A DNA stretch of 64,000 bases from a virus (Duplodnaviria > Caudoviricetes): the IMG/VR virus record IMGVR_UViG_3300013121_000027, positions 64,001 to 128,000 of that record; one strand, written 5' to 3'. The position numbers and the translations under genes are program-made. Positions 1-47,134 of the stretch are shown piece after piece (the first letter of the stretch is position 1; every line of letters starts with the position of its first letter). The notes under the pieces are model-generated. The model searched no databases, had not been told where the DNA came from, and saw only the letters and a program-made list of their open reading frames with translations.

Positions 1-8
1 AAGAGGGA

Positions 9-1055
9 TTGGATTGGGTTTTCGATCCATCTAATTTTATTCCTTATTCTACTATTGCAACCGATGCTTTCGCCGCTAAAGAATATGTAGATCCTGCTCA
101 AAAGGGAGCAAAACTATATACTCTTTATGATGCTACTCATAAGCAATATATACCTTATTATCCTCATAGAATTCCATATGCCAAAGAGTTAAAGCCATTC
201 AATCAATCAATTACCGACATTAATCCTACTCCTTCTTTAACTTCTTTATTATTTACTTTAAAAAGAGATCCAGTAAAATTTGTTCCTCTTTTACAGCAAG
301 AAGAATTTGGTATAGATATTGCTTCCTTTGAATTTTCCCAAAAAGCTCTTCAAATAAAAAATATTCTTGAAAGTAAAATCTGTCCTCACTGTAATAAAAT
401 ATTCCCTCAAATGGAAAAATTTACTTCTGTTCTTGTCGGCATTGATACCGTTGAAAAAATAGTGACAGAAAGTGACATGTGGTGTACGCATTGTGTCGCT
501 ACTTCAACTGCTCAAATCGATATTCATGGAGATACTTTTCCTGCATCTACAGATATATTGCTTTGGAGCGAGCACTATAGTCTATACTTCCTACCCTTTG
601 ACATTACTGAATGTCCAGGTTGTGGAGAATGTCAGCCAAACAATATAGATACTTCTGACTTTTTTGTTTATGGATTGGATTTCGATAATCCCATTGGATG
701 TGTTAACTGTCTATATTCTGAAGACGATGAAGCTCTTTATGTTTGGGATCCATTCATTAAAAAGTATTTCATTAACGAATTAGCAGTTGAAGTTCAAACT
801 CTTCAGATGTTACCAGATCCTCAAACCTTAAAGATATCGGTTTGTCAAGCGCTACAACTTGTCCATCCTACAACCGCAGAACATATTTGTAATTGTGGCA
901 TGTATATAGATGATCCACTTTCTAAGTGCGTAAGTAAAAAAAAAGAAGATAATTCTTTGACATGTGTCACGTGCGTGAATAAAGAACTTATATCTACAGG
1001 TCCACAAATCACTGAAGTTGTTTTAGATACCAAAGGAAAAACCATAGATGAATGA
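9..1055 (+). CDS. Cys-rich hypothetical protein with multiple CxxC pairs (5' end may lie outside the window)
   Basis: CPHC, CTHC, CPGC, CVNC, CVTC motifs; stop overlaps start of JAB gene. Confidence 0.6.
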   Translation: MDWVFDPSNFIPYSTIATDAFAAKEYVDPAQKGAKLYTLYDATHKQYIPYYPHRIPYAKELKPFNQSITDINPTPSLTSLLFTLKRDPVKFVPLLQQEEFGIDIASFEFSQKALQIKNILESKICPHCNKIFPQMEKFTSVLVGIDTVEKIVTESDMWCTHCVATSTAQIDIHGDTFPASTDILLWSEHYSLYFLPFDITECPGCGECQPNNIDTSDFFVYGLDFDNPIGCVNCLYSEDDEALYVWDPFIKKYFINELAVEVQTLQMLPDPQTLKISVCQALQLVHPTTAEHICNCGMYIDDPLSKCVSKKKEDNSLTCVTCVNKELISTGPQITEVVLDTKGKTIDE

Positions 1056-2295
1056 GCAAGAGCTCCAAGAATTAGGCTATGTCAGGCACATAGGTCCTCT
1101 CCCCCTTTTCTGGGGTGCCGAGACTGACTCCATGAAAGATATTGAAGAAGCTGGATTCCAAGACTATTATCTTCTTGCTCAAGAAAAGATAGCTCTTCCT
1201 CCTCAGCAGGGTAAAGCTCAAGAATATGCGTATCGTCCTACCATATTTCTTATCACCAAAACTATCATGGGTCGGGCGGTGACACTTGCTGAACCTAAAG
1301 ATATTAATCTTTTTCAATCCACAAACGAAAGCGCTCAATACTTCATGCCCAAGATGCCTTGGGAAATGGTTCAAAAAATGGATGCGTTCTTTAGGTTAAC
1401 CTATAAGAAACATGGCTCTGAAGCTATTCTTGTTCTTACTTATGATATGGATTATGTAGGCACTGAGAATCCTTCTGCTGGATGGAATTGTATTGCTCCT
1501 AAGCAGAAGAATACCGCTGGTAACTGCGACTATGAACCCGATTCTATTCTTCAATATAAGAAAGATTCAGAACTCATCCTTGGCACTATTCACTCTCATC
1601 CAGAAATGAGTGCATACTTTTCCTCTACTGACCATAAGGATCAGGACGAATGGGACGGTATTCATATTACTCAAGCCTGGAAGGGCACCGGTCCTACCGA
1701 GTATTATATTGCTATGATATTAGGTGGACAACAATGGGTTCTTAAACCTGAACAGGTTTTTGATACTCCTCCTCTTCCTCAAGTTGACACAACTCAAGTT
1801 GAGACCTGGATGGAAAATGTAGAAAAAAAAGCCGTCCAGCCGGCACCGATGACTCAGTATGGCAAGACTTATGGTACCACGGGTACCTCTAATCCGCCAT
1901 TGAGCTTGGCTATGCCGTTGCCCACTCAAGGGTTTATGCCTGCTGATAAAGTACGTGCAATCAAGCTTCCAGCTAACGCTCCCGATCCAGAAACGACAGT
2001 TATCATTCCCGAATATCCCGCCTCTATTCTTACCGATACCGTTCTTCATAAGTGCCGCCTCTGCAACGCACCACTTCTTGCTCAGTGTGTTAATTCTCGT
2101 AGGTGTGTTGCTTGCACTGCCTTTATGTTGATTGAAGGTGAAAGCGTAAAGGATCTTGAAGATTATAGAAATAATGGCAAATGGTCCTATTCACTTTACA
2201 TTGATTTGGAAAAGTCTCCCAATCCTATTTCCATCTATTACTTGGATGAAACTTTCTCTGATGATCAAAGAATTGGTGCCTACCCAAAAGTTTAG
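1048..2295 (+). CDS. JAB/MPN+ metalloprotease (prokaryotic deubiquitinase-like, PRTRC protein A-like) with C-terminal Zn ribbon
   Basis: upstream Glu (GSEA) and GTIHSHPEMSAYFSSTD = HxH-x7-S-x2-D; CRLC...CVAC; adjacent to ThiF and Ubl. Confidence 0.9.
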   Translation: MNEQELQELGYVRHIGPLPLFWGAETDSMKDIEEAGFQDYYLLAQEKIALPPQQGKAQEYAYRPTIFLITKTIMGRAVTLAEPKDINLFQSTNESAQYFMPKMPWEMVQKMDAFFRLTYKKHGSEAILVLTYDMDYVGTENPSAGWNCIAPKQKNTAGNCDYEPDSILQYKKDSELILGTIHSHPEMSAYFSSTDHKDQDEWDGIHITQAWKGTGPTEYYIAMILGGQQWVLKPEQVFDTPPLPQVDTTQVETWMENVEKKAVQPAPMTQYGKTYGTTGTSNPPLSLAMPLPTQGFMPADKVRAIKLPANAPDPETTVIIPEYPASILTDTVLHKCRLCNAPLLAQCVNSRRCVACTAFMLIEGESVKDLEDYRNNGKWSYSLYIDLEKSPNPISIYYLDETFSDDQRIGAYPKV

Positions 2296-2951
2296 GGGAC
2301 ACGGTTGCCCCCTTCGATCATAAAGATCGCCCTAGCCCTGCGTATAGGTTAATATCGTGTCCCGAATGCTATTCTGATTTTGATGATTATACCTACACAA
2401 CTGGCAAGCCTGTCTTAGCTGATCTTTGGTTCTGTACCTATTGTGGTTGCGGAGTTCAAGATTACTTCATTCTAGGAACTGAAGTCTGTTGGTTTGTAGA
2501 CAGTATTGATCTTATAGATGAATTTGAATTTCTTTATGAACCAATTTCTGCGATGACCCAATTGGATCTACAGAATTCGTTTACTTGTTTATGTTGCGAT
2601 CTTCCTATCGAAGATTGTCAAACTTATGGTCAACCCAGATTCAATATTTCTCAAATAAGCATTGAGGACTATATGATTGATCATCATATTATGCGCAGAG
2701 ATATTTATAATGAAAACTTTTCGGATTGCTGCACATGCCAGTTCTATATGACAGATGCTTGTGTTCCTTTAAGAAATATTATTCGTTTTTACCATCAAGC
2801 CAAAGTCATTCCATCCTTTAATTTAGTCGGATGTTATGATTATGAGCAAAATGATGATGCTGATGAATATCTTAACGCATTAAGTGATCAAAAATTTCAA
2901 TCAGAAAAAGAAAAAGATACAATTGTCTTGCCTAAAAAATATACACTTTAA
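2283..2951 (+). CDS. Cys-rich ORF, probably a -1 frameshift extension of the JAB protein
   Basis: frame is open from slippery C CCA AAA (2283-2289) through the annotated ORF 2553-2951 with no start codon before 2553; encodes CPEC...CTYC. Confidence 0.7.
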   Translation, partial: PKSLGDTVAPFDHKDRPSPAYRLISCPECYSDFDDYTYTTGKPVLADLWFCTYCGCGVQDYFILGTEVCWFVDSIDLIDEFEFLYEPISAMTQLDLQNSFTCLCCDLPIEDCQTYGQPRFNISQISIEDYMIDHHIMRRDIYNENFSDCCTCQFYMTDACVPLRNIIRFYHQAKVIPSFNLVGCYDYEQNDDADEYLNALSDQKFQSEKEKDTIVLPKKYTL

Positions 2952-2959
2952 GGATACTA

Positions 2960-3754
2960 ATGGCTAATAACACTAAAAGGATGATCCTGATTGGCTGTGG
3001 AGGTACAGGAACATGGCTTGCCCATGGTCTTGCTAAATCTCTTCAGTTTCAAGCTCCAGGATCTGCTCTTCTTCTTATAGATGGCGATTCATTTGAACCT
3101 AAGAATGCAGAACGTCAACAGTTTTCACATACTGGTAATAAAGCTTACGTTTTAGCCGAAGATATTCAATATCAAAACCAAGCTATATTTGTTATCCCTC
3201 GTGCTGCCTGGATTGTATCTGCTGATGTTGAGGATCAAGTAGATGACGACGAAGCTGATGATGGTGCTGTTGTTGTTGCCCGTATTACTGCAGAATCTTT
3301 GCTTGAAGAGAACGATATTGTTTATGCCTGTGTAGATAACTATGCTGCCCGTAAGTTGATTTTTGATGCCGCAAAGAATCTCTCTAATATAGATGTCTTT
3401 ACTGGTGGCAATGATGAACATCTCTTTGGAACCGTCTATCATTACCGTCGTCGCGATGGACAAGATATAACTTTTCCTCCAGACTATTTCCATGATGAGT
3501 TTATTAATCCTGGAGATAAGAATCCTGGTGAACTCTCCTGCCAAGAAAGAGCAGAGCTTGATGGCGGAACTCAATTGCTCGCTGTAAATATGGCAGTTGC
3601 CTCTCATTTACTTGCCAAAACCGCTCATACGATTTTTGGTACTGAAAAAGAAAATAAGGCTGCCTTGGAAAAGGCAGAAATATACTTTGACCTTGAATTG
3701 GGTCTCTCTCAACCCTATGATCGCCGTCCAGCTTTGGTTGCTGTAACGGTTTAA
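2960..3754 (+). CDS. ThiF/E1-like ubiquitin-activating enzyme
   Basis: IGCGGTG, DGD..EPKNAERQ, CVDNYAAR, candidate catalytic Cys in ELSC. Confidence 0.92.
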   Translation: MANNTKRMILIGCGGTGTWLAHGLAKSLQFQAPGSALLLIDGDSFEPKNAERQQFSHTGNKAYVLAEDIQYQNQAIFVIPRAAWIVSADVEDQVDDDEADDGAVVVARITAESLLEENDIVYACVDNYAARKLIFDAAKNLSNIDVFTGGNDEHLFGTVYHYRRRDGQDITFPPDYFHDEFINPGDKNPGELSCQERAELDGGTQLLAVNMAVASHLLAKTAHTIFGTEKENKAALEKAEIYFDLELGLSQPYDRRPALVAVTV

Positions 3755-3788: not shown

Positions 3789-4043
3789 ATGACTACTGGT
3801 GAATCAGCAGCCGCAGCAAGCAGCCCAAGCTCTTCTGGCAAGGCAACTATTAAGTCTGGCGTTCGCGTTCAGCAAATCGAAGCGGGTCAGACTGTCGGAC
3901 AAGCCCGCGCTGAGTGGGCTACTCTGTTCCGCATTCCAACCGATGCGAAAGCTTACAGTGGTACCACTGAGCTGAGCGAAGATACTCAAATCACTCCTGA
4001 TATGAACGTTGAATTCATTAAGAAGAGTGGAGAGAAGGGCTGA
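3789..4043 (+). CDS. ubiquitin-like beta-grasp protein
   Basis: 84 aa, TVGQAR.., C-terminus VEFIKKSGEKG ending in free Gly; directly after E1. Confidence 0.85.
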   Translation: MTTGESAAAASSPSSSGKATIKSGVRVQQIEAGQTVGQARAEWATLFRIPTDAKAYSGTTELSEDTQITPDMNVEFIKKSGEKG

Positions 4044-4933: not shown

Positions 4934-6547
4934 ATGTCGTCTTTAGTTGACTCTTTGTCAAATCGTACTCCTATTGTCTGGGTTAATACATTGGAACCCG
5001 AAAGGGCTATTGCAGCTATCCCTTCTTTGAAGTCTGATGCAAGACCTCTCTATGTTTATGATGAATTCTCAGGTCTAATGGTTTGGGATCAAGACAAGGA
5101 CACTTGGAAAGTTGTCTTGGTTGAAATTAAGGATCCCGATACAGGTGAAGTAGTCCAAAAGCCAGTCTTTGGTTCTCAACAAGCCTTTGGTTATATCCTT
5201 AACCAGGATCCAAGTATTTATATAGTTCGTAATGCTCATAAAGATATTGATAACCACTTAACTTTATTCTCTGTTTTGTATAATCGTTATCGTTCAACGT
5301 TCTTTTCTGATGACTTGGATAAGCTCCCTACTCAAGTTATTTGCTTTGCGGCAAATGAGCCAGCGCCACCCGAAATCTCTTCAATGACTACAACTGCTGC
5401 ATGGGGATATCCGACTCCCCTTGAGCTTCGCACTATTATAACTAATATTCGTCAGAACTATAAAGACGACGTTGCTTCTGATGAAGATCTTGATGAGCTT
5501 GTCAAGTCTTCAGTCGGTCTTACTGAGCACGATGCTATTGAAGTCTATCTTTCTTCTATTCGTTCTCATGGCACCATTGACAAAAAGACTCTTCGTTCTT
5601 TGCGTCTGGAGCGTCTCAAGGCTATGTCCAATCTTGAAGTGGATGAGCCAAAGGTTCAGCTTTCTGATATTGGTGGTCTTGACAATGCTAAGAAGCTTAT
5701 TCAGCGTGCGGCATGGATTTGGCAGAATCCTGAAGAGGCTGCTAAATACAAGCTTGTTCCTCTTCGTCGCATTCTTCTTCTTGGTCTTTCTGGCTGTGGT
5801 AAATCCTACCTTTGCGAGGGTGCAGCCAGCGCTCTTGGTCTTCAGCTCGCCAAAGGTGGCGTCTCCAAGGCTATGAATAAGTTCATTGGTCAATCAGAGG
5901 CAAATATTACTGCCATGTTTGATCAGATCAATGCAATGTCTCCAATTACTCTTTGGATTGATGAAATTGGTCGTGATCTTTCTGGTGGTGGCTCTTCTAA
6001 CTATACCGATGGTGGCACTACTTCTCGTGTTCATGGATTGTTCTTGACTAAGATGCAAGAGCTCAATAAGGATGTATTTGTTTTTGCGGCTGCCAATAAC
6101 ATTGAATCTTTGGCTCCTGAGATGCTTCGTGCCGACCGCTTTGACAAACTCTTCTTCGTTGGCTTCCCGTCCTATGAAGAACGTCGTGATATCTTTGCCC
6201 TTCATCTCCCCAGAGATGCACAGTTTGATCTTGATGAGTTGGCAAGTCATACTCCGTGTTTTACTGGTGCAGAAATAAAAGCTCTTATTGAGCGTACTAT
6301 TTTTGATATTTCTCCACAATATAACCGTACTATTACCACAGAGGATTTAGTTAAAACTATTCCTTATCAGAAAAACCGTATTTGGATTCGTCATCGTAAT
6401 CTTGCTGTCAATATGTACTCCAGTGCCTTCAACGAATATGAATGGGCTTCTACCTCTCAGTATGGTGAAGCTCAGTTTATTATGAAGGGCGTTGAACCAA
6501 AACAAGGCATCACTGTTAATGCGGGGATGAGTCTTAATCTTAAGTAA
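4934..6547 (+). CDS. AAA+ ATPase (Ycf46-like)
   Basis: DIGGLD, Walker A GLSGCGKS, pore loop KFIGQSE, Walker B LWIDE, SRH PEMLRADRFD. Confidence 0.9.
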   Translation: MSSLVDSLSNRTPIVWVNTLEPERAIAAIPSLKSDARPLYVYDEFSGLMVWDQDKDTWKVVLVEIKDPDTGEVVQKPVFGSQQAFGYILNQDPSIYIVRNAHKDIDNHLTLFSVLYNRYRSTFFSDDLDKLPTQVICFAANEPAPPEISSMTTTAAWGYPTPLELRTIITNIRQNYKDDVASDEDLDELVKSSVGLTEHDAIEVYLSSIRSHGTIDKKTLRSLRLERLKAMSNLEVDEPKVQLSDIGGLDNAKKLIQRAAWIWQNPEEAAKYKLVPLRRILLLGLSGCGKSYLCEGAASALGLQLAKGGVSKAMNKFIGQSEANITAMFDQINAMSPITLWIDEIGRDLSGGGSSNYTDGGTTSRVHGLFLTKMQELNKDVFVFAAANNIESLAPEMLRADRFDKLFFVGFPSYEERRDIFALHLPRDAQFDLDELASHTPCFTGAEIKALIERTIFDISPQYNRTITTEDLVKTIPYQKNRIWIRHRNLAVNMYSSAFNEYEWASTSQYGEAQFIMKGVEPKQGITVNAGMSLNLK

Positions 6548-18081: not shown

Positions 18082-18155
18082 GGTTTCATAGTTCAATGTA
18101 GAACGACATCCTCTAAAGATGTGCGTTGCGGGTTCAAGTCCCGCTGAAACCTCCA
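18082..18155 (+). tRNA. amber suppressor tRNA (anticodon CTA)
   Basis: GGTTTCA/TGAAACC acceptor, ACATC-CTCTAAA-GATGT, T-arm GCGGG-TTCAAGT-CCCGC, encoded CCA. Confidence 0.88.
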
Positions 18156-43795: not shown

Positions 43796-46700
43796 TTAAA
43801 CCTCTAACAAAAGCTTTAAAGTGGGTTCTACACTCTTGGATGTGGTAGTATTAAATCTAATTTTAACTTCACTACCATTATCTAAAAATGTAAGAAATAC
43901 TGGACTATTTCCTTTATTATTATCTATTATATCATTTATTCTTTTTAATTGCGAAACAGATACTTCATTGAGGGAATTGAGGAAAATTGGAGTACCACCT
44001 ATAAGGTGATTGTCATCAACCTTTTCCACATCAAATGCGATAATCCCAATAGAAGTATTCTCATCTTCCCCATCCTTTCTCGTCTTGCCGACAGCTACCA
44101 CAATGTCCCCGACTTTAAATGGATCATCGGGCAAATTTATAGCTTGCTGCGGCATGATAGTAATCTCTATCCCGTCCTGCTCATCTTCTATCCAGAGGAC
44201 AAACATTTTCTTTCCTTGTCTCGTTATCTTTTTAGTGCAACTAATAACAACACCAGATACTTTTACTTTTTCTTGCGCTGACATTTTTAACACTTGCGAA
44301 ATGGTATGTGTTGCCTTGCCCTCAACTAAATCTTTTACATTGTTAAATGGGTGATCACTTAGAAAGATACCTAACGTATTTAATTCTCTATATAGAACCT
44401 CGTTTTTCGTCTTTCTATTAAAGTTAACGTTTGGCAAATCTAATTGAGCAAAGAAATCATCTAAACATCCCGCATCTATAAGACTTGAGACGGTCCCACG
44501 ATCAAGATATTCATTATCTGCATCTCTTAGAAATTGAAAAAGATTAACATATTCTTTCTTATCTCTTCCTATAAGTTCTACGGATTTTTCACCAAATCCT
44601 TTAACAGATTCAAATCCATAGACAATTTCTTTATCGTTTAAAACATCGAATTCAGCGTTTCTTTTTTGGATAGAGGGGGGAAGAACTTTTATTCCCTTCT
44701 TTTTGCATTCACCCAAATAAAGTCTTAACTTATCCTTATTGGTAGTCTTAGAGCCAAGCGATGTCATAGCTGCTGCCATGAATTCTGTGGTGTATTTGAT
44801 TTTAAAGAATGCCGTGAGATAAGATGTATATGCATAAGCAAAGGCATGGCATTTACCAAAGCTATAGTCTGCGTGATGCTCTATCTCTTTGAAGAGCTGT
44901 TCAGCGATTTGATGTGGCATTTGAGATGTTGAAACGCATCCGTCAATAAATTGAGTACGCCATTTTTTCATCTCTTCTGGAATCTTTTTACCTACAGCTT
45001 TACGAAGACCGTCAGAATCTGGCACCGAAAATCCTGCAACGAATCTTGCAATATCTAACACCTGTTCCTGATAAACTAAAAGCCCATAGGTATCTTTTAG
45101 ATATGGCTCTAATGCCTGGTGAAGATATTTAACTGGCTTTCTACCATGTTTACGTTCCACATATTCAAGATGGAAATTAGAACCCATCGGACCTGGGCGA
45201 TAAAGGGCGATCAGCGCCGCAATATCTTTCAAGCAGGTAGGTTTCATGGCGACCAGAAGATTTAATAATCCATCGCTTTCGAGTTGGAAAACACCAATAT
45301 TATCCCCGCTACCTAATCCCGCATAGACTTCTTGATCTTCATCATCTACAAGTAGATATGGTTCTTGGAAAACTAATCCCTTTGTTTTTTCTATAGTATC
45401 CATAGCCATTACTTCCATAGAGATATTTCTAAGTCCAAGAAAGTCAATTTTTAAAAGACCAAGACGGTCGATTTGTTTCATATCCCATTGGGTTATAATG
45501 GGTTTATCCTCGCCCTTTTGAAGAACTGGTACATATTCAATGATTGGTTTATCAGTAATAACTAATCCAGCCGCATGAACTCCAACCTGACGCCATTGTC
45601 CCTCAAATACTTTTGCGATATCTATAATCTCACGTGCTACTTCGTCTTTTTCATACAGTCGCAAAAACTCTTCAGATTTTAGACACTCATCAAGACTCTT
45701 GCTCTTGCCATAAAGAGCGGGTGGCATGGCTTTATTAATCTCGTCACCTACAGAATAGGGATGGTTAAGTACGCGCGCAACATCCTTAATCGCTGTCTTT
45801 GCTCCGATTTCGGAGACGGTCCCAATCTGGGCAGTGTGATCGAATCCATACTTATTTCTTGTGTATTGGATTACCGCATCCCTATATCTATCATCGAAGT
45901 CCAAGTCAATATCTGGCAGAGATTTACGCCCCGGTATTAAGAAACGCTCAAAGGGAAGACCATACTTAAGAGGGTTAACTTCAGTAATCTTCATGCAGTA
46001 TGAGACTAAAGATCCAGCAGCAGAACCACGACCTGCGCCTGCCATAATTTTATTCTGTCGTGCCCACTCTACAATGTCCGCAACGATCAAGAAATAATTA
46101 GGAAATCCCATCTCACAGATGACGCCTATCTCATATTGAAGACGATCAAATACTTCCTTATTATCTCTCCAATTAGAACCAAATCTTTCTCCTGCCCCAC
46201 GATAAATCCAATCTTTGAAATGATCATCTACAGTCTGATTGTTAGGCACTGGAAAATTAGGCATGTGGCTATCGCCAAATTGAAGATTTACCTCATGCTT
46301 TTCAAGGACTAAAAGAGTATTCTTTAAGTACTCTTCAGGAAAAATCTGAGCCATTTCATCATAAGACTTAAGATAGAAGTGTGGTCCAGAAAATTTAAAT
46401 CTATTAGGCGTATCTATTCGGCTACCGGTATTCACACACAATAAAATGTCATGCTCGTGGGCATGTTCCTTACATACATAATGCGAATCGCAAGTAGCAA
46501 CGATCGGAGCATTAAGATAGTTGGCTATTTCAATCAGTTTTGGATAGTTACGAATCTCTTCTTCGATACCGTGATTCTGAACTTCAATAAAGTAATTCTC
46601 TTTACCCACAATGTCTTGCATTCTTGCTGCTGCATTGCGAGCAAAATCAAAATCATCACGAAGAAGAGCCTGCTGTACTTCTCCTGAGAGGCAGCCAGAT

Positions 46701-47134
46701 AGGGCTACAAGCCCCTTAGAATGCTGCGCCAGTAGTTCATGGTCAACTCGTGGTTTGACATAAAAACCTTCCAAGTATGCTTTAGAAGATAGCTTAATGA
46801 TATTATTATAGCCTTCATTGTTATAAGCTATAATTCCAAGGTGATAAGGTCCACGCTGTGCCCACTCAGCGCTTTCCTTACCCGACTGCTCTTCTGGATC
46901 TTTATCGAAGCGTGTCTTACGTGCTTGGTAAAATTCAATACCAGGTAAGTATTTTAGCCCATATTTTTGGGCAGCGTCATACCCATCTAAAAGCCCATGT
47001 AGATTACCGTGCTCCGTAAAGCAGATACCTTTCATTCCAAGAGCCTGAGCTCTCGCTGCATACTCGTCAAACTTCGCCATACCATCCAGCAGAGATGAAG
47101 TGCTATGGGCATGAAGATTAGCGTACTCTTTCAT
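43796..47134 (-). CDS. dnaE: DNA polymerase III alpha subunit
   Basis: PHP LHAHS..SLLDG, GRGSAAGSLV, PDIDLDF, HAAG, LLKIDFLGL, ALYRPGP, OB fold. Confidence 0.97.
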   Translation of the reverse strand: MKEYANLHAHSTSSLLDGMAKFDEYAARAQALGMKGICFTEHGNLHGLLDGYDAAQKYGLKYLPGIEFYQARKTRFDKDPEEQSGKESAEWAQRGPYHLGIIAYNNEGYNNIIKLSSKAYLEGFYVKPRVDHELLAQHSKGLVALSGCLSGEVQQALLRDDFDFARNAAARMQDIVGKENYFIEVQNHGIEEEIRNYPKLIEIANYLNAPIVATCDSHYVCKEHAHEHDILLCVNTGSRIDTPNRFKFSGPHFYLKSYDEMAQIFPEEYLKNTLLVLEKHEVNLQFGDSHMPNFPVPNNQTVDDHFKDWIYRGAGERFGSNWRDNKEVFDRLQYEIGVICEMGFPNYFLIVADIVEWARQNKIMAGAGRGSAAGSLVSYCMKITEVNPLKYGLPFERFLIPGRKSLPDIDLDFDDRYRDAVIQYTRNKYGFDHTAQIGTVSEIGAKTAIKDVARVLNHPYSVGDEINKAMPPALYGKSKSLDECLKSEEFLRLYEKDEVAREIIDIAKVFEGQWRQVGVHAAGLVITDKPIIEYVPVLQKGEDKPIITQWDMKQIDRLGLLKIDFLGLRNISMEVMAMDTIEKTKGLVFQEPYLLVDDEDQEVYAGLGSGDNIGVFQLESDGLLNLLVAMKPTCLKDIAALIALYRPGPMGSNFHLEYVERKHGRKPVKYLHQALEPYLKDTYGLLVYQEQVLDIARFVAGFSVPDSDGLRKAVGKKIPEEMKKWRTQFIDGCVSTSQMPHQIAEQLFKEIEHHADYSFGKCHAFAYAYTSYLTAFFKIKYTTEFMAAAMTSLGSKTTNKDKLRLYLGECKKKGIKVLPPSIQKRNAEFDVLNDKEIVYGFESVKGFGEKSVELIGRDKKEYVNLFQFLRDADNEYLDRGTVSSLIDAGCLDDFFAQLDLPNVNFNRKTKNEVLYRELNTLGIFLSDHPFNNVKDLVEGKATHTISQVLKMSAQEKVKVSGVVISCTKKITRQGKKMFVLWIEDEQDGIEITIMPQQAINLPDDPFKVGDIVVAVGKTRKDGEDENTSIGIIAFDVEKVDDNHLIGGTPIFLNSLNEVSVSQLKRINDIIDNNKGNSPVFLTFLDNGSEVKIRFNTTTSKSVEPTLKLLLEV

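Follow-up and report, generated by a model that had tools for sequence, protein, structure and literature searches.

How might a phage express a long open reading frame (ORF) that has no place to begin? The question is raised by a stretch of 64,000 nucleotides (nt), here called the window, which makes up bases 64001-128000 of the IMG/VR virus record IMGVR_UViG_3300013121_000027. The record as a whole is 231,459 bp long and is bounded by direct terminal repeats; the source genome is a jumbo phage. Near the start of the window, a gene for a metalloprotease of the JAB/JAMM class has, one codon before its stop, the bases C CCA AAA, and the reading frame one base back (the -1 frame) stays open past the JAB stop and into an ORF rich in cysteine (Cys). 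A model's reading of the letters alone, referred to below as the original prediction, proposed that some ribosomes slip at this point, and that the protease is made in a short form and in a long form that carries Cys-rich domains, at a ratio it supposed to be fixed. Comparison of 12 loci, the window included, now makes it very probable that a conserved -1 programmed ribosomal frameshift at the end of the JAB gene is real. The parts of the site in the window are as follows:

1048-2295, plus strand: JAB/JAMM metalloprotease gene, zero-frame product of 415 amino acids (aa), PF14464 Prok-JAB
2283-2289, plus strand: slippery heptamer C CCA AAA, of the form X XXY YYZ, in register with the JAB frame
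2293-2295, plus strand: zero-frame stop TAG, one codon past the heptamer
2289-2951, plus strand: -1 frame extension, 220 codons and a stop, readable only after a shift
2294-2313, plus strand: local hairpin of 5+2 bp with a CGGU loop, AGGGG.CA(CGGU)UG.CCCCU, -7.7 kcal/mol; candidate stimulator
2358-2444, plus strand: first C4 zinc-ribbon-like unit, CPEC (2358-2369) ... W-x-CTYC (2433-2444)
2592-2840, plus strand: second Cys-rich domain, C-x-CCD...C ... CxxC..Y....C-[IV]-P-L-R-N ... C, without a known fold match

The JAB ORF terminates ...GCC TAC CCA AAA GTT TAG. The first C of the heptamer falls on the third codon position of the JAB frame, which is the register of a frameshift site. In the -1 frame, two stops at 2259-2264 are followed by an open run from 2265 to 2951 (228 codons stop-to-stop), and no ATG, GTG or TTG occurs in it before 2553, that is, for 90 codons counted from the heptamer. 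The first C4 unit thus lies wholly upstream of the first canonical start. The ATG at 2553 has no Shine-Dalgarno-like (SD-like) motif ahead of it, and initiation there would remove this first zinc unit; the only near-cognate start in the window before the unit's leading pair of cysteines (the CPxC knuckle) is ATA at 2352, with a poor AGG 3 nt upstream. Public annotation gives the Cys-rich ORF as a protein of 92 aa (P0011, start near 2673), leaving about 380 nt (2296-2672) unannotated. The original prediction read the site correctly in each of these respects: the in-register heptamer, the start-less -1 frame running into ORF 2553-2951, the CPEC and CTYC motifs in that frame, and the hairpin, which begins 4 nt past the heptamer. 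Its estimate of about 635 aa for the long product, beside a short one of 415 aa, comes out at 634 aa (414 + 220).

The mechanism would be the canonical one. A ribosome that reaches C CCA AAA would have its P-site tRNA-Pro paired with CCA and its A-site tRNA-Lys with AAA; in a fraction of cases it would slip back one base, re-pair on CCC AAA, and read on in the -1 frame from AGU at 2289. Ribosomes that stay in the zero frame would stop at TAG 2293-2295 and release the 415-aa JAB protease; those that slip would make a protein of 634 aa, consisting of JAB residues 1-414, a 23-residue linker, the C4 zinc-ribbon-like unit and the second Cys-rich domain. Downstream RNA structure probably pauses the ribosome and raises the slip rate, by a local hairpin here and by a stem 6-8 nt downstream in most relatives; the zero-frame stop beside the site may contribute. 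Both the slippage itself and the role of the structure as its stimulator are what we infer from sequence comparison. The heptamer has some experimental pedigree: when Sharma et al. (2014) tested all heptamers in Escherichia coli, C_CC.A_AA.A was among those that shifted frame at above 0.10% with no stimulator present, and V_VV.A_AA.R ranked with the most efficient classes (PMC4066793). The original prediction had attributed -1 shifts in phage tail-chaperone genes to sites of this type; a literature search found no paper connecting CCCAAAA with tail-chaperone frameshifts.

The evidence that carries this reading is the recurrence of the layout. DNA of 11 related loci (L002-L004, L006-L010, L014, L015 and L017) was taken from ENA, Logan and JGI assemblies; their JAB proteins are 35-63% identical to that of the window. 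In all 12 loci the sequence xxC CCA AAA stands in register with JAB, 0-1 codon before its stop, whether that stop is TAG, TAA or TGA, and in all 12 the -1 frame opens shortly ahead of the heptamer and runs through it into the Cys-rich ORF. Conservation of heptamer and frame had been put forward with the original prediction as a check on it, and the result is positive throughout; homologs in the form of single-frame fusions, or lacking the heptamer, would have spoken the other way, and none was found. Recurrence of the layout in all 11 related loci puts the arrangement far beyond chance.

The bases are conserved more closely than the protein would demand. The heptamer's seven positions are invariant over the 12 loci, and the 12 nt upstream of it are unconserved. 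The codon before it reads TAC, TTC, TTC, TCC, GTC, GAC, TCC, GAC, AAC, GCC, CCC and GAC in the several loci, specifying eight kinds of residue (Tyr, Phe, Ser, Val, Asp, Asn, Ala and Pro) with a constant C at the third position; codons ending in C make up 11-82% of those available for these residues in the same genes. Similarly, CCA accounts for 18-45% of Pro codons in the same genes, and AAA for 13-72% of Lys codons, being the minority Lys codon in L004, L006, L007 and L010. These ranges leave aside L017, a fragment of 57 codons in which CCA is 67% of 3 Pro codons and AAA 2 of 2 Lys codons. An invariant heptamer, spelled with minority codons and preceded by a fixed wobble C, therefore points to selection on the nucleotides and not just on a Pro-Lys C-terminus. 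In L002 and L003 the -1 frame has a stop one codon ahead of the heptamer, and its overlap with the JAB frame is just 16 nt, nearly all of it the heptamer; the heptamer is therefore the only place where the frame could change in these two.

The DNA between the heptamer and the first CxxC also behaves as a coding sequence. Ten of the 12 loci have a linker of 23 codons, and the remaining two have 25 and 27, so that it varies in length only by multiples of three. The mean pairwise identity is 0.46 at codon position 1, 0.46 at position 2 and 0.34 at position 3, and an R-x-S-P motif is conserved. By these signs, the linker is coding in the -1 frame.

An exhaustive HMMER search with the -1 ORF through 1.84 billion representative proteins returned 16 relatives of 178-211 aa, together with the 92-aa call from this genome, and no protein of fusion length. 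No single-frame JAB-Cys-rich fusion occurs among the JAB homologs (412-422 aa), nor did a profile search limited to longer proteins find any. Gene calls for many relatives in public data begin past the first knuckle, at internal ATGs; this is the truncation expected if the true N-terminus comes from JAB.

Several observations weigh against a programmed frameshift; they concern the downstream RNA structure and the starts available to a separate Cys-rich gene. In the window the hairpin is modest: the 78-nt fold has a z-score of 0.25, and the 55 nt after the site rank at the 11th percentile of local 55-nt windows (L015 ranks likewise, near 11% of its local background). The hairpin is not conserved as such in relatives. 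What eight relatives have instead is a longer-range stem beginning 6-8 nt past the heptamer. In L004, L007, L009 and L010 this stem is of the type GGGCUGCG / CGUAGCCC, begins 6-7 nt past the heptamer and encloses about 25-30 nt; L014 has GGGUUUCG / CGAAACCC, and L015, L017 and L008 also have differently spelled stems in the same place. The stem regions of the first four are:

L004, 4270-4311: post-heptamer stem region
L007, 4235-4276: post-heptamer stem region
L009, 1437-1478: post-heptamer stem region
L010, 1399-1438: post-heptamer stem region

In 7 of the 12 loci the 55 nt after the site fold in the best 3.6% of their own local background; L002, L003 and L006 are without notable structure by minimum free energy. 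A covariation check took a 9-bp helix on a MAFFT alignment, and again after realignment to a covariance model, and compared it with slid controls. The fixed-register helix pairs in 62% of cells over the 12 loci, against 30-53% for the controls, and its covariation score equals theirs both before and after realignment. A single conserved helix across the family was accordingly dropped as a proposal, since its covariation does not rise above the slid controls. Predicted stable structure downstream of the site is common in the family, and a shared stimulator lacks covariation support. The 3' arm of the stem (CGUAGCCC) coincides with the codons of the conserved R-S-P in the linker, a motif that may be constrained at the level of RNA and of protein both.

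The other difficulty lies with seven relatives in which the Cys-rich ORF might start independently, at a codon between the heptamer and the first knuckle, and it is from these that the strongest competing account is built: JAB and the Cys-rich ORF would be separate proteins, the second started by termination-reinitiation or from a non-canonical start, and CCCAAAA would serve some other purpose. All public gene calls do show two separate genes. L010 has an ATG right after the heptamer that overlaps the JAB stop in an ATGA (CCAAAATGA), and L014 has TAATG, both of them classic arrangements for coupled translation; L006 and L015 carry an SD-like motif with an ATG ahead of the first knuckle, L002 and L003 an ATG 2-3 codons ahead of it, and L017 a TTG. 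Reinitiation of separate genes is possible for some of these relatives, and the seven may make the Cys-rich protein alone as well as fused. As an account of the whole family it is improbable. The heptamer is retained in all seven; the window, L004, L008 and L009 offer no ATG, GTG or TTG between the JAB stop and the CPxC knuckle, and the window's ATA at 2352 is a poor substitute. In L007 the sole canonical start sits inside JAB, upstream of the heptamer, and is absent from its close relative L009. Reinitiation leaves unexplained why all 12 loci keep an in-register heptamer, down to three synonymous positions, and why the -1 frame is always open across it.

Two further explanations do away with the extension altogether or with the break in frame. 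Suppose that the heptamer is kept merely by a need for Pro-Lys, helped by codon bias, that the real gene is ORF 2553-2951, and that 2296-2552 is a decaying or non-coding remnant. Pro-Lys is indeed invariant at the JAB C-terminus in the homolog alignment, and the ORF does begin with ATG; on the other hand the site always uses CCA and AAA, which several of the genes otherwise use as minority codons, the wobble C before the heptamer is kept despite changes in the amino acid, and the supposed remnant keeps its frame, its 23-codon linker, its CPxC and WxCxxC motifs and its codon periodicity. With the ATG at 2553 also lacking an SD-like motif and cutting off the first zinc unit, this account is very unlikely. 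Least likely of all is an origin of the break in an indel made during assembly or sequencing, or in a recent mutation that inactivated an ancestrally single-frame fusion. Single-base errors of this kind are common where sequencing meets a short homopolymer-rich stretch; the same break at the same heptamer recurs in 11 other loci drawn from ENA, Logan and JGI, and among relatives close and distant alike there is no in-frame fusion. Two junctions were recovered twice from separate assemblies (L004 is the same as L005, and L015 as L016). An assembly indel is thus ruled out by the identical duplicate junctions and by conservation across 11 other assemblies.

Two other routes past the JAB stop were considered and rejected. 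Amber read-through of the TAG would add just 18 zero-frame residues (2296-2349, ending at TAA 2350-2352) and cannot reach the Cys-rich ORF; two relatives, moreover, end JAB in TAA or TGA. TAG is an ordinary stop in the window, where it ends 10 of 77 long ORFs, JAB included. Transcriptional slippage was rejected on the ground that the A run is only four bases long. The window carries, among 10 tRNA genes found by ARAGORN, one with a CUA anticodon (an amber suppressor):

18082-18155, plus strand: tRNA with CUA anticodon

If this tRNA is active, JAB would gain the 18-residue zero-frame tail.

What, then, would the long form join together? The JAB half is recognizably an enzyme. It matches PF14464 Prok-JAB at 30.4 bits (cutoff 25), and its JAMM motif is intact, with the pattern E...HxHx7Sx2D; E125, H182, H184, S192 and D195 are invariant across 10 homologs, as is a C-terminal CxxC...CxxC at residues 336-356. 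A search with the protein found nine homologs of 412-422 aa with 37-63% identity to it. The INPHARED phage collection, searched for closer relatives at the level of both DNA and protein, yielded nothing, scans of IMG/VR with the JAB protein and the JAB alignment gave no relative, and a metagenome scan gave only distant JAB genes.

The Cys-rich extension is more elusive. In its first unit C51 and C54 are invariant, with CPxC in each locus that has sequence there; comparison with PDB sequences gave only weak, non-significant matches to zinc ribbons or rubredoxin, with E-values of at least 0.07. In the second domain C104, C105, D106, C112, Y142, C149 and C152 are nearly invariant. The extension has no match in Pfam, PHROG, NCBIfam or PADLOC, including RING, zf-UBP and other zinc-finger or E3 domains, and no similarity to the JAB family by hhalign. 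Modelled with AlphaFold2 from a 21-row alignment, the extension has a mean predicted local distance difference test score (pLDDT) of 71.7, rising to 80-93 over residues about 100-200; neither Foldseek nor VIA-align found a PDB fold match for the model. The top structural match in BFVD is A0A6J5MC84, a 560-aa 'JAB domain-containing protein' from an uncultured Caudovirales phage, over 93 columns with 29% identity (Foldseek probability 1.00, E-value 3.2e-3, which is above the 0.001 mark). By itself this match to a model hints that a related domain can share a polypeptide with JAB, perhaps as an in-frame fusion; the lead has no sequence-level relative in the phage collection. When JAB and the Cys-rich part were submitted to complex prediction as separate chains, the median score was 0.55 and that of the best control 0.00; runs agree in at least 42% of contacts, with partner pLDDT of at least 64. 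The support is weak: 58 of the 80 solved complexes reach the mark set for the score, as do 2 of the 110 mismatched pairs, but only 7 of the 80 solved complexes reach it with a score of 0.60 or less, against both of the mismatches that pass.

The neighbouring genes suggest a setting for such an enzyme. A co-oriented plus-strand cassette spans the window from 1 to about 6550, and gene order in the longer related contigs matches that of the window: large ORF, JAB, Cys-rich ORF, ThiF, small ORFs, AAA. Its members other than those already listed are:

3-1055, plus strand: Cys-rich ORF upstream of JAB, running off the window start, without a family match
2960-3754, plus strand: ThiF/E1-like adenylyltransferase gene, PF00899 at 50.6 bits (cutoff 28.1)
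3789-4043, plus strand: candidate ubiquitin-like (Ubl) protein of 84 aa, its translation Gly-terminated and ending ...GEKG
4934-6547, plus strand: AAA+ ATPase of CDC48/PAN type at the cassette end, PF00004 at 77.5 bits

The ThiF/E1 gene has a start signal of its own, AAGGA-N6-ATG. The 84-aa ORF that follows has no family match; an ORF of 83-94 aa comes after E1 in the relatives too, and its assignment as a Ubl protein is that of a candidate, drawn from context. Two further small ORFs lie between it and the AAA ATPase gene, whose top NCBIfam matches are CDC48 and the proteasome-activating nucleotidase, both under family cutoffs. The truncated ORF at 3-1055 has counterparts of about 550-560 aa in relatives, with many CxxC pairs; hhalign finds no similarity between it and the frameshift-encoded Cys-rich domain.

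In this company, the long form may tether a zinc-binding recognition module, or an E3-like one, to the protease of a Ubl-like cassette, as the genomic context would suggest. A fuller version supposes that the extension is an undescribed zinc-binding fold, acting as the recognition or E3-like module of a phage Ubl conjugation system, with the frameshift setting the share of it that is tied to JAB. This version is tentative, and on present evidence rather doubtful.

How does the site compare with systems already known? Canonical bacterial and phage -1 sites (dnaX, orfAB of IS3/IS911, lambda G/GT) are laid out alike: an in-register V_VV.A_AA.R heptamer stands toward the end of the upstream ORF, with a zero-frame stop just downstream and RNA structure, in the present case predicted, a few nt after, and the outcome is, and here would be, a short product beside a C-terminally extended one (PMC4066793; PMC5009743). 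Unlike them, the genes joined here are a JAB metalloprotease and a Cys-rich domain in a Ubl-like cassette, not a tail chaperone, a transposase or a clamp-loader subunit, and the stimulator varies among relatives, without formal covariation support. The site would work as G/GT does, but the locus does not belong with the tail-chaperone G/GT genes: its neighbours are JAB, ThiF/E1, small ORFs and an AAA ATPase, and no tape-measure gene lies nearby. A tail-chaperone frameshift was sought in the window as an internal control, and the suspected tape measure, an ORF of 1112 aa, proved to be a DNA polymerase:

43796-47134, minus strand: DNA polymerase of 1112 aa, phrog_405, E-value 1.8e-285

Nuclease, MazG-like and primase-like genes lie on either side of it, which makes the minus-strand half of the window a replication module.

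The cassette, for its part, resembles the prokaryotic and phage JAB-E1(-E2)-Ubl cassettes (Iyer, Burroughs and Aravind 2006, PMC1779556; PRTRC, CBASS Cap2/Cap3 and Bil/Bub-type), which likewise set a Prok-JAB protein with a JAMM motif beside ThiF/E1 and a small Gly-terminated protein. The top NCBIfam matches of JAB and E1 are PRTRC_A and PRTRC_ThiF. Their scores place them outside the PRTRC families (TIGR03735 / TIGR03736), at 20.1 versus 101.8 bits for JAB and 34.7 versus 144.75 bits for E1, and PADLOC matches are weak. Unlike the known cassettes, this one belongs to a phage of 231 kb, and its last gene encodes a CDC48/PAN-like AAA ATPase. A literature search found no paper reporting a frameshift-linked Cys-rich domain in JAB-E1-Ubl cassettes. 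As far as these searches show, then, the mechanism is a known one, and the gene family and the setting in a phage Ubl-like cassette are new.

A few observations on the relatives may be added. In four related contigs a WhiB-family gene lies about 2.4 kb upstream of JAB:

L002, 126-599: WhiB-family gene, PF02467
L003, 91-588: WhiB-family gene, PF02467
L004, 158-643: WhiB-family gene, PF02467
L007, 89-577: WhiB-family gene, PF02467

These genes hint at actinobacterial hosts, though the phage G+C is only 36-50%. Among the distant JAB genes from the metagenome scan is one in a cassette on a 128-kb metagenomic contig:

L012, 1-4040: distant cassette, with a 287-aa JAB gene overlapping the ThiF/E1 start

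Here JAB is followed directly by E1, with no Cys-rich gene between them, and the locus is therefore uninformative on the frameshift. An ORF with a reverse-transcriptase-like YADD motif lies about 1.4 kb upstream of its JAB gene.

Tail-chaperone genes supply most of the known conserved -1 frameshifts that are well supported in tailed phages; here the setting is a Ubl-like tagging cassette of a jumbo phage. For annotation, the consequence is that some 260 nt of apparent intergenic DNA and a truncated gene call would be coding sequence of a 634-aa isoform, with the same mis-annotation in every public relative. Predictors of frameshifting would gain, for their training sets, a gene family with clear conservation at synonymous sites. 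For the biology of these phages, the site offers a handle on their Ubl-like system: there would be two isoforms of JAB, one of them with a zinc-type domain that lacks a fold match, and recoding a single heptamer would separate their roles. If the extension does prove to be an E3-like module, this would be the first pair of enzyme isoforms controlled by recoding in a prokaryotic or viral Ubl-like pathway.

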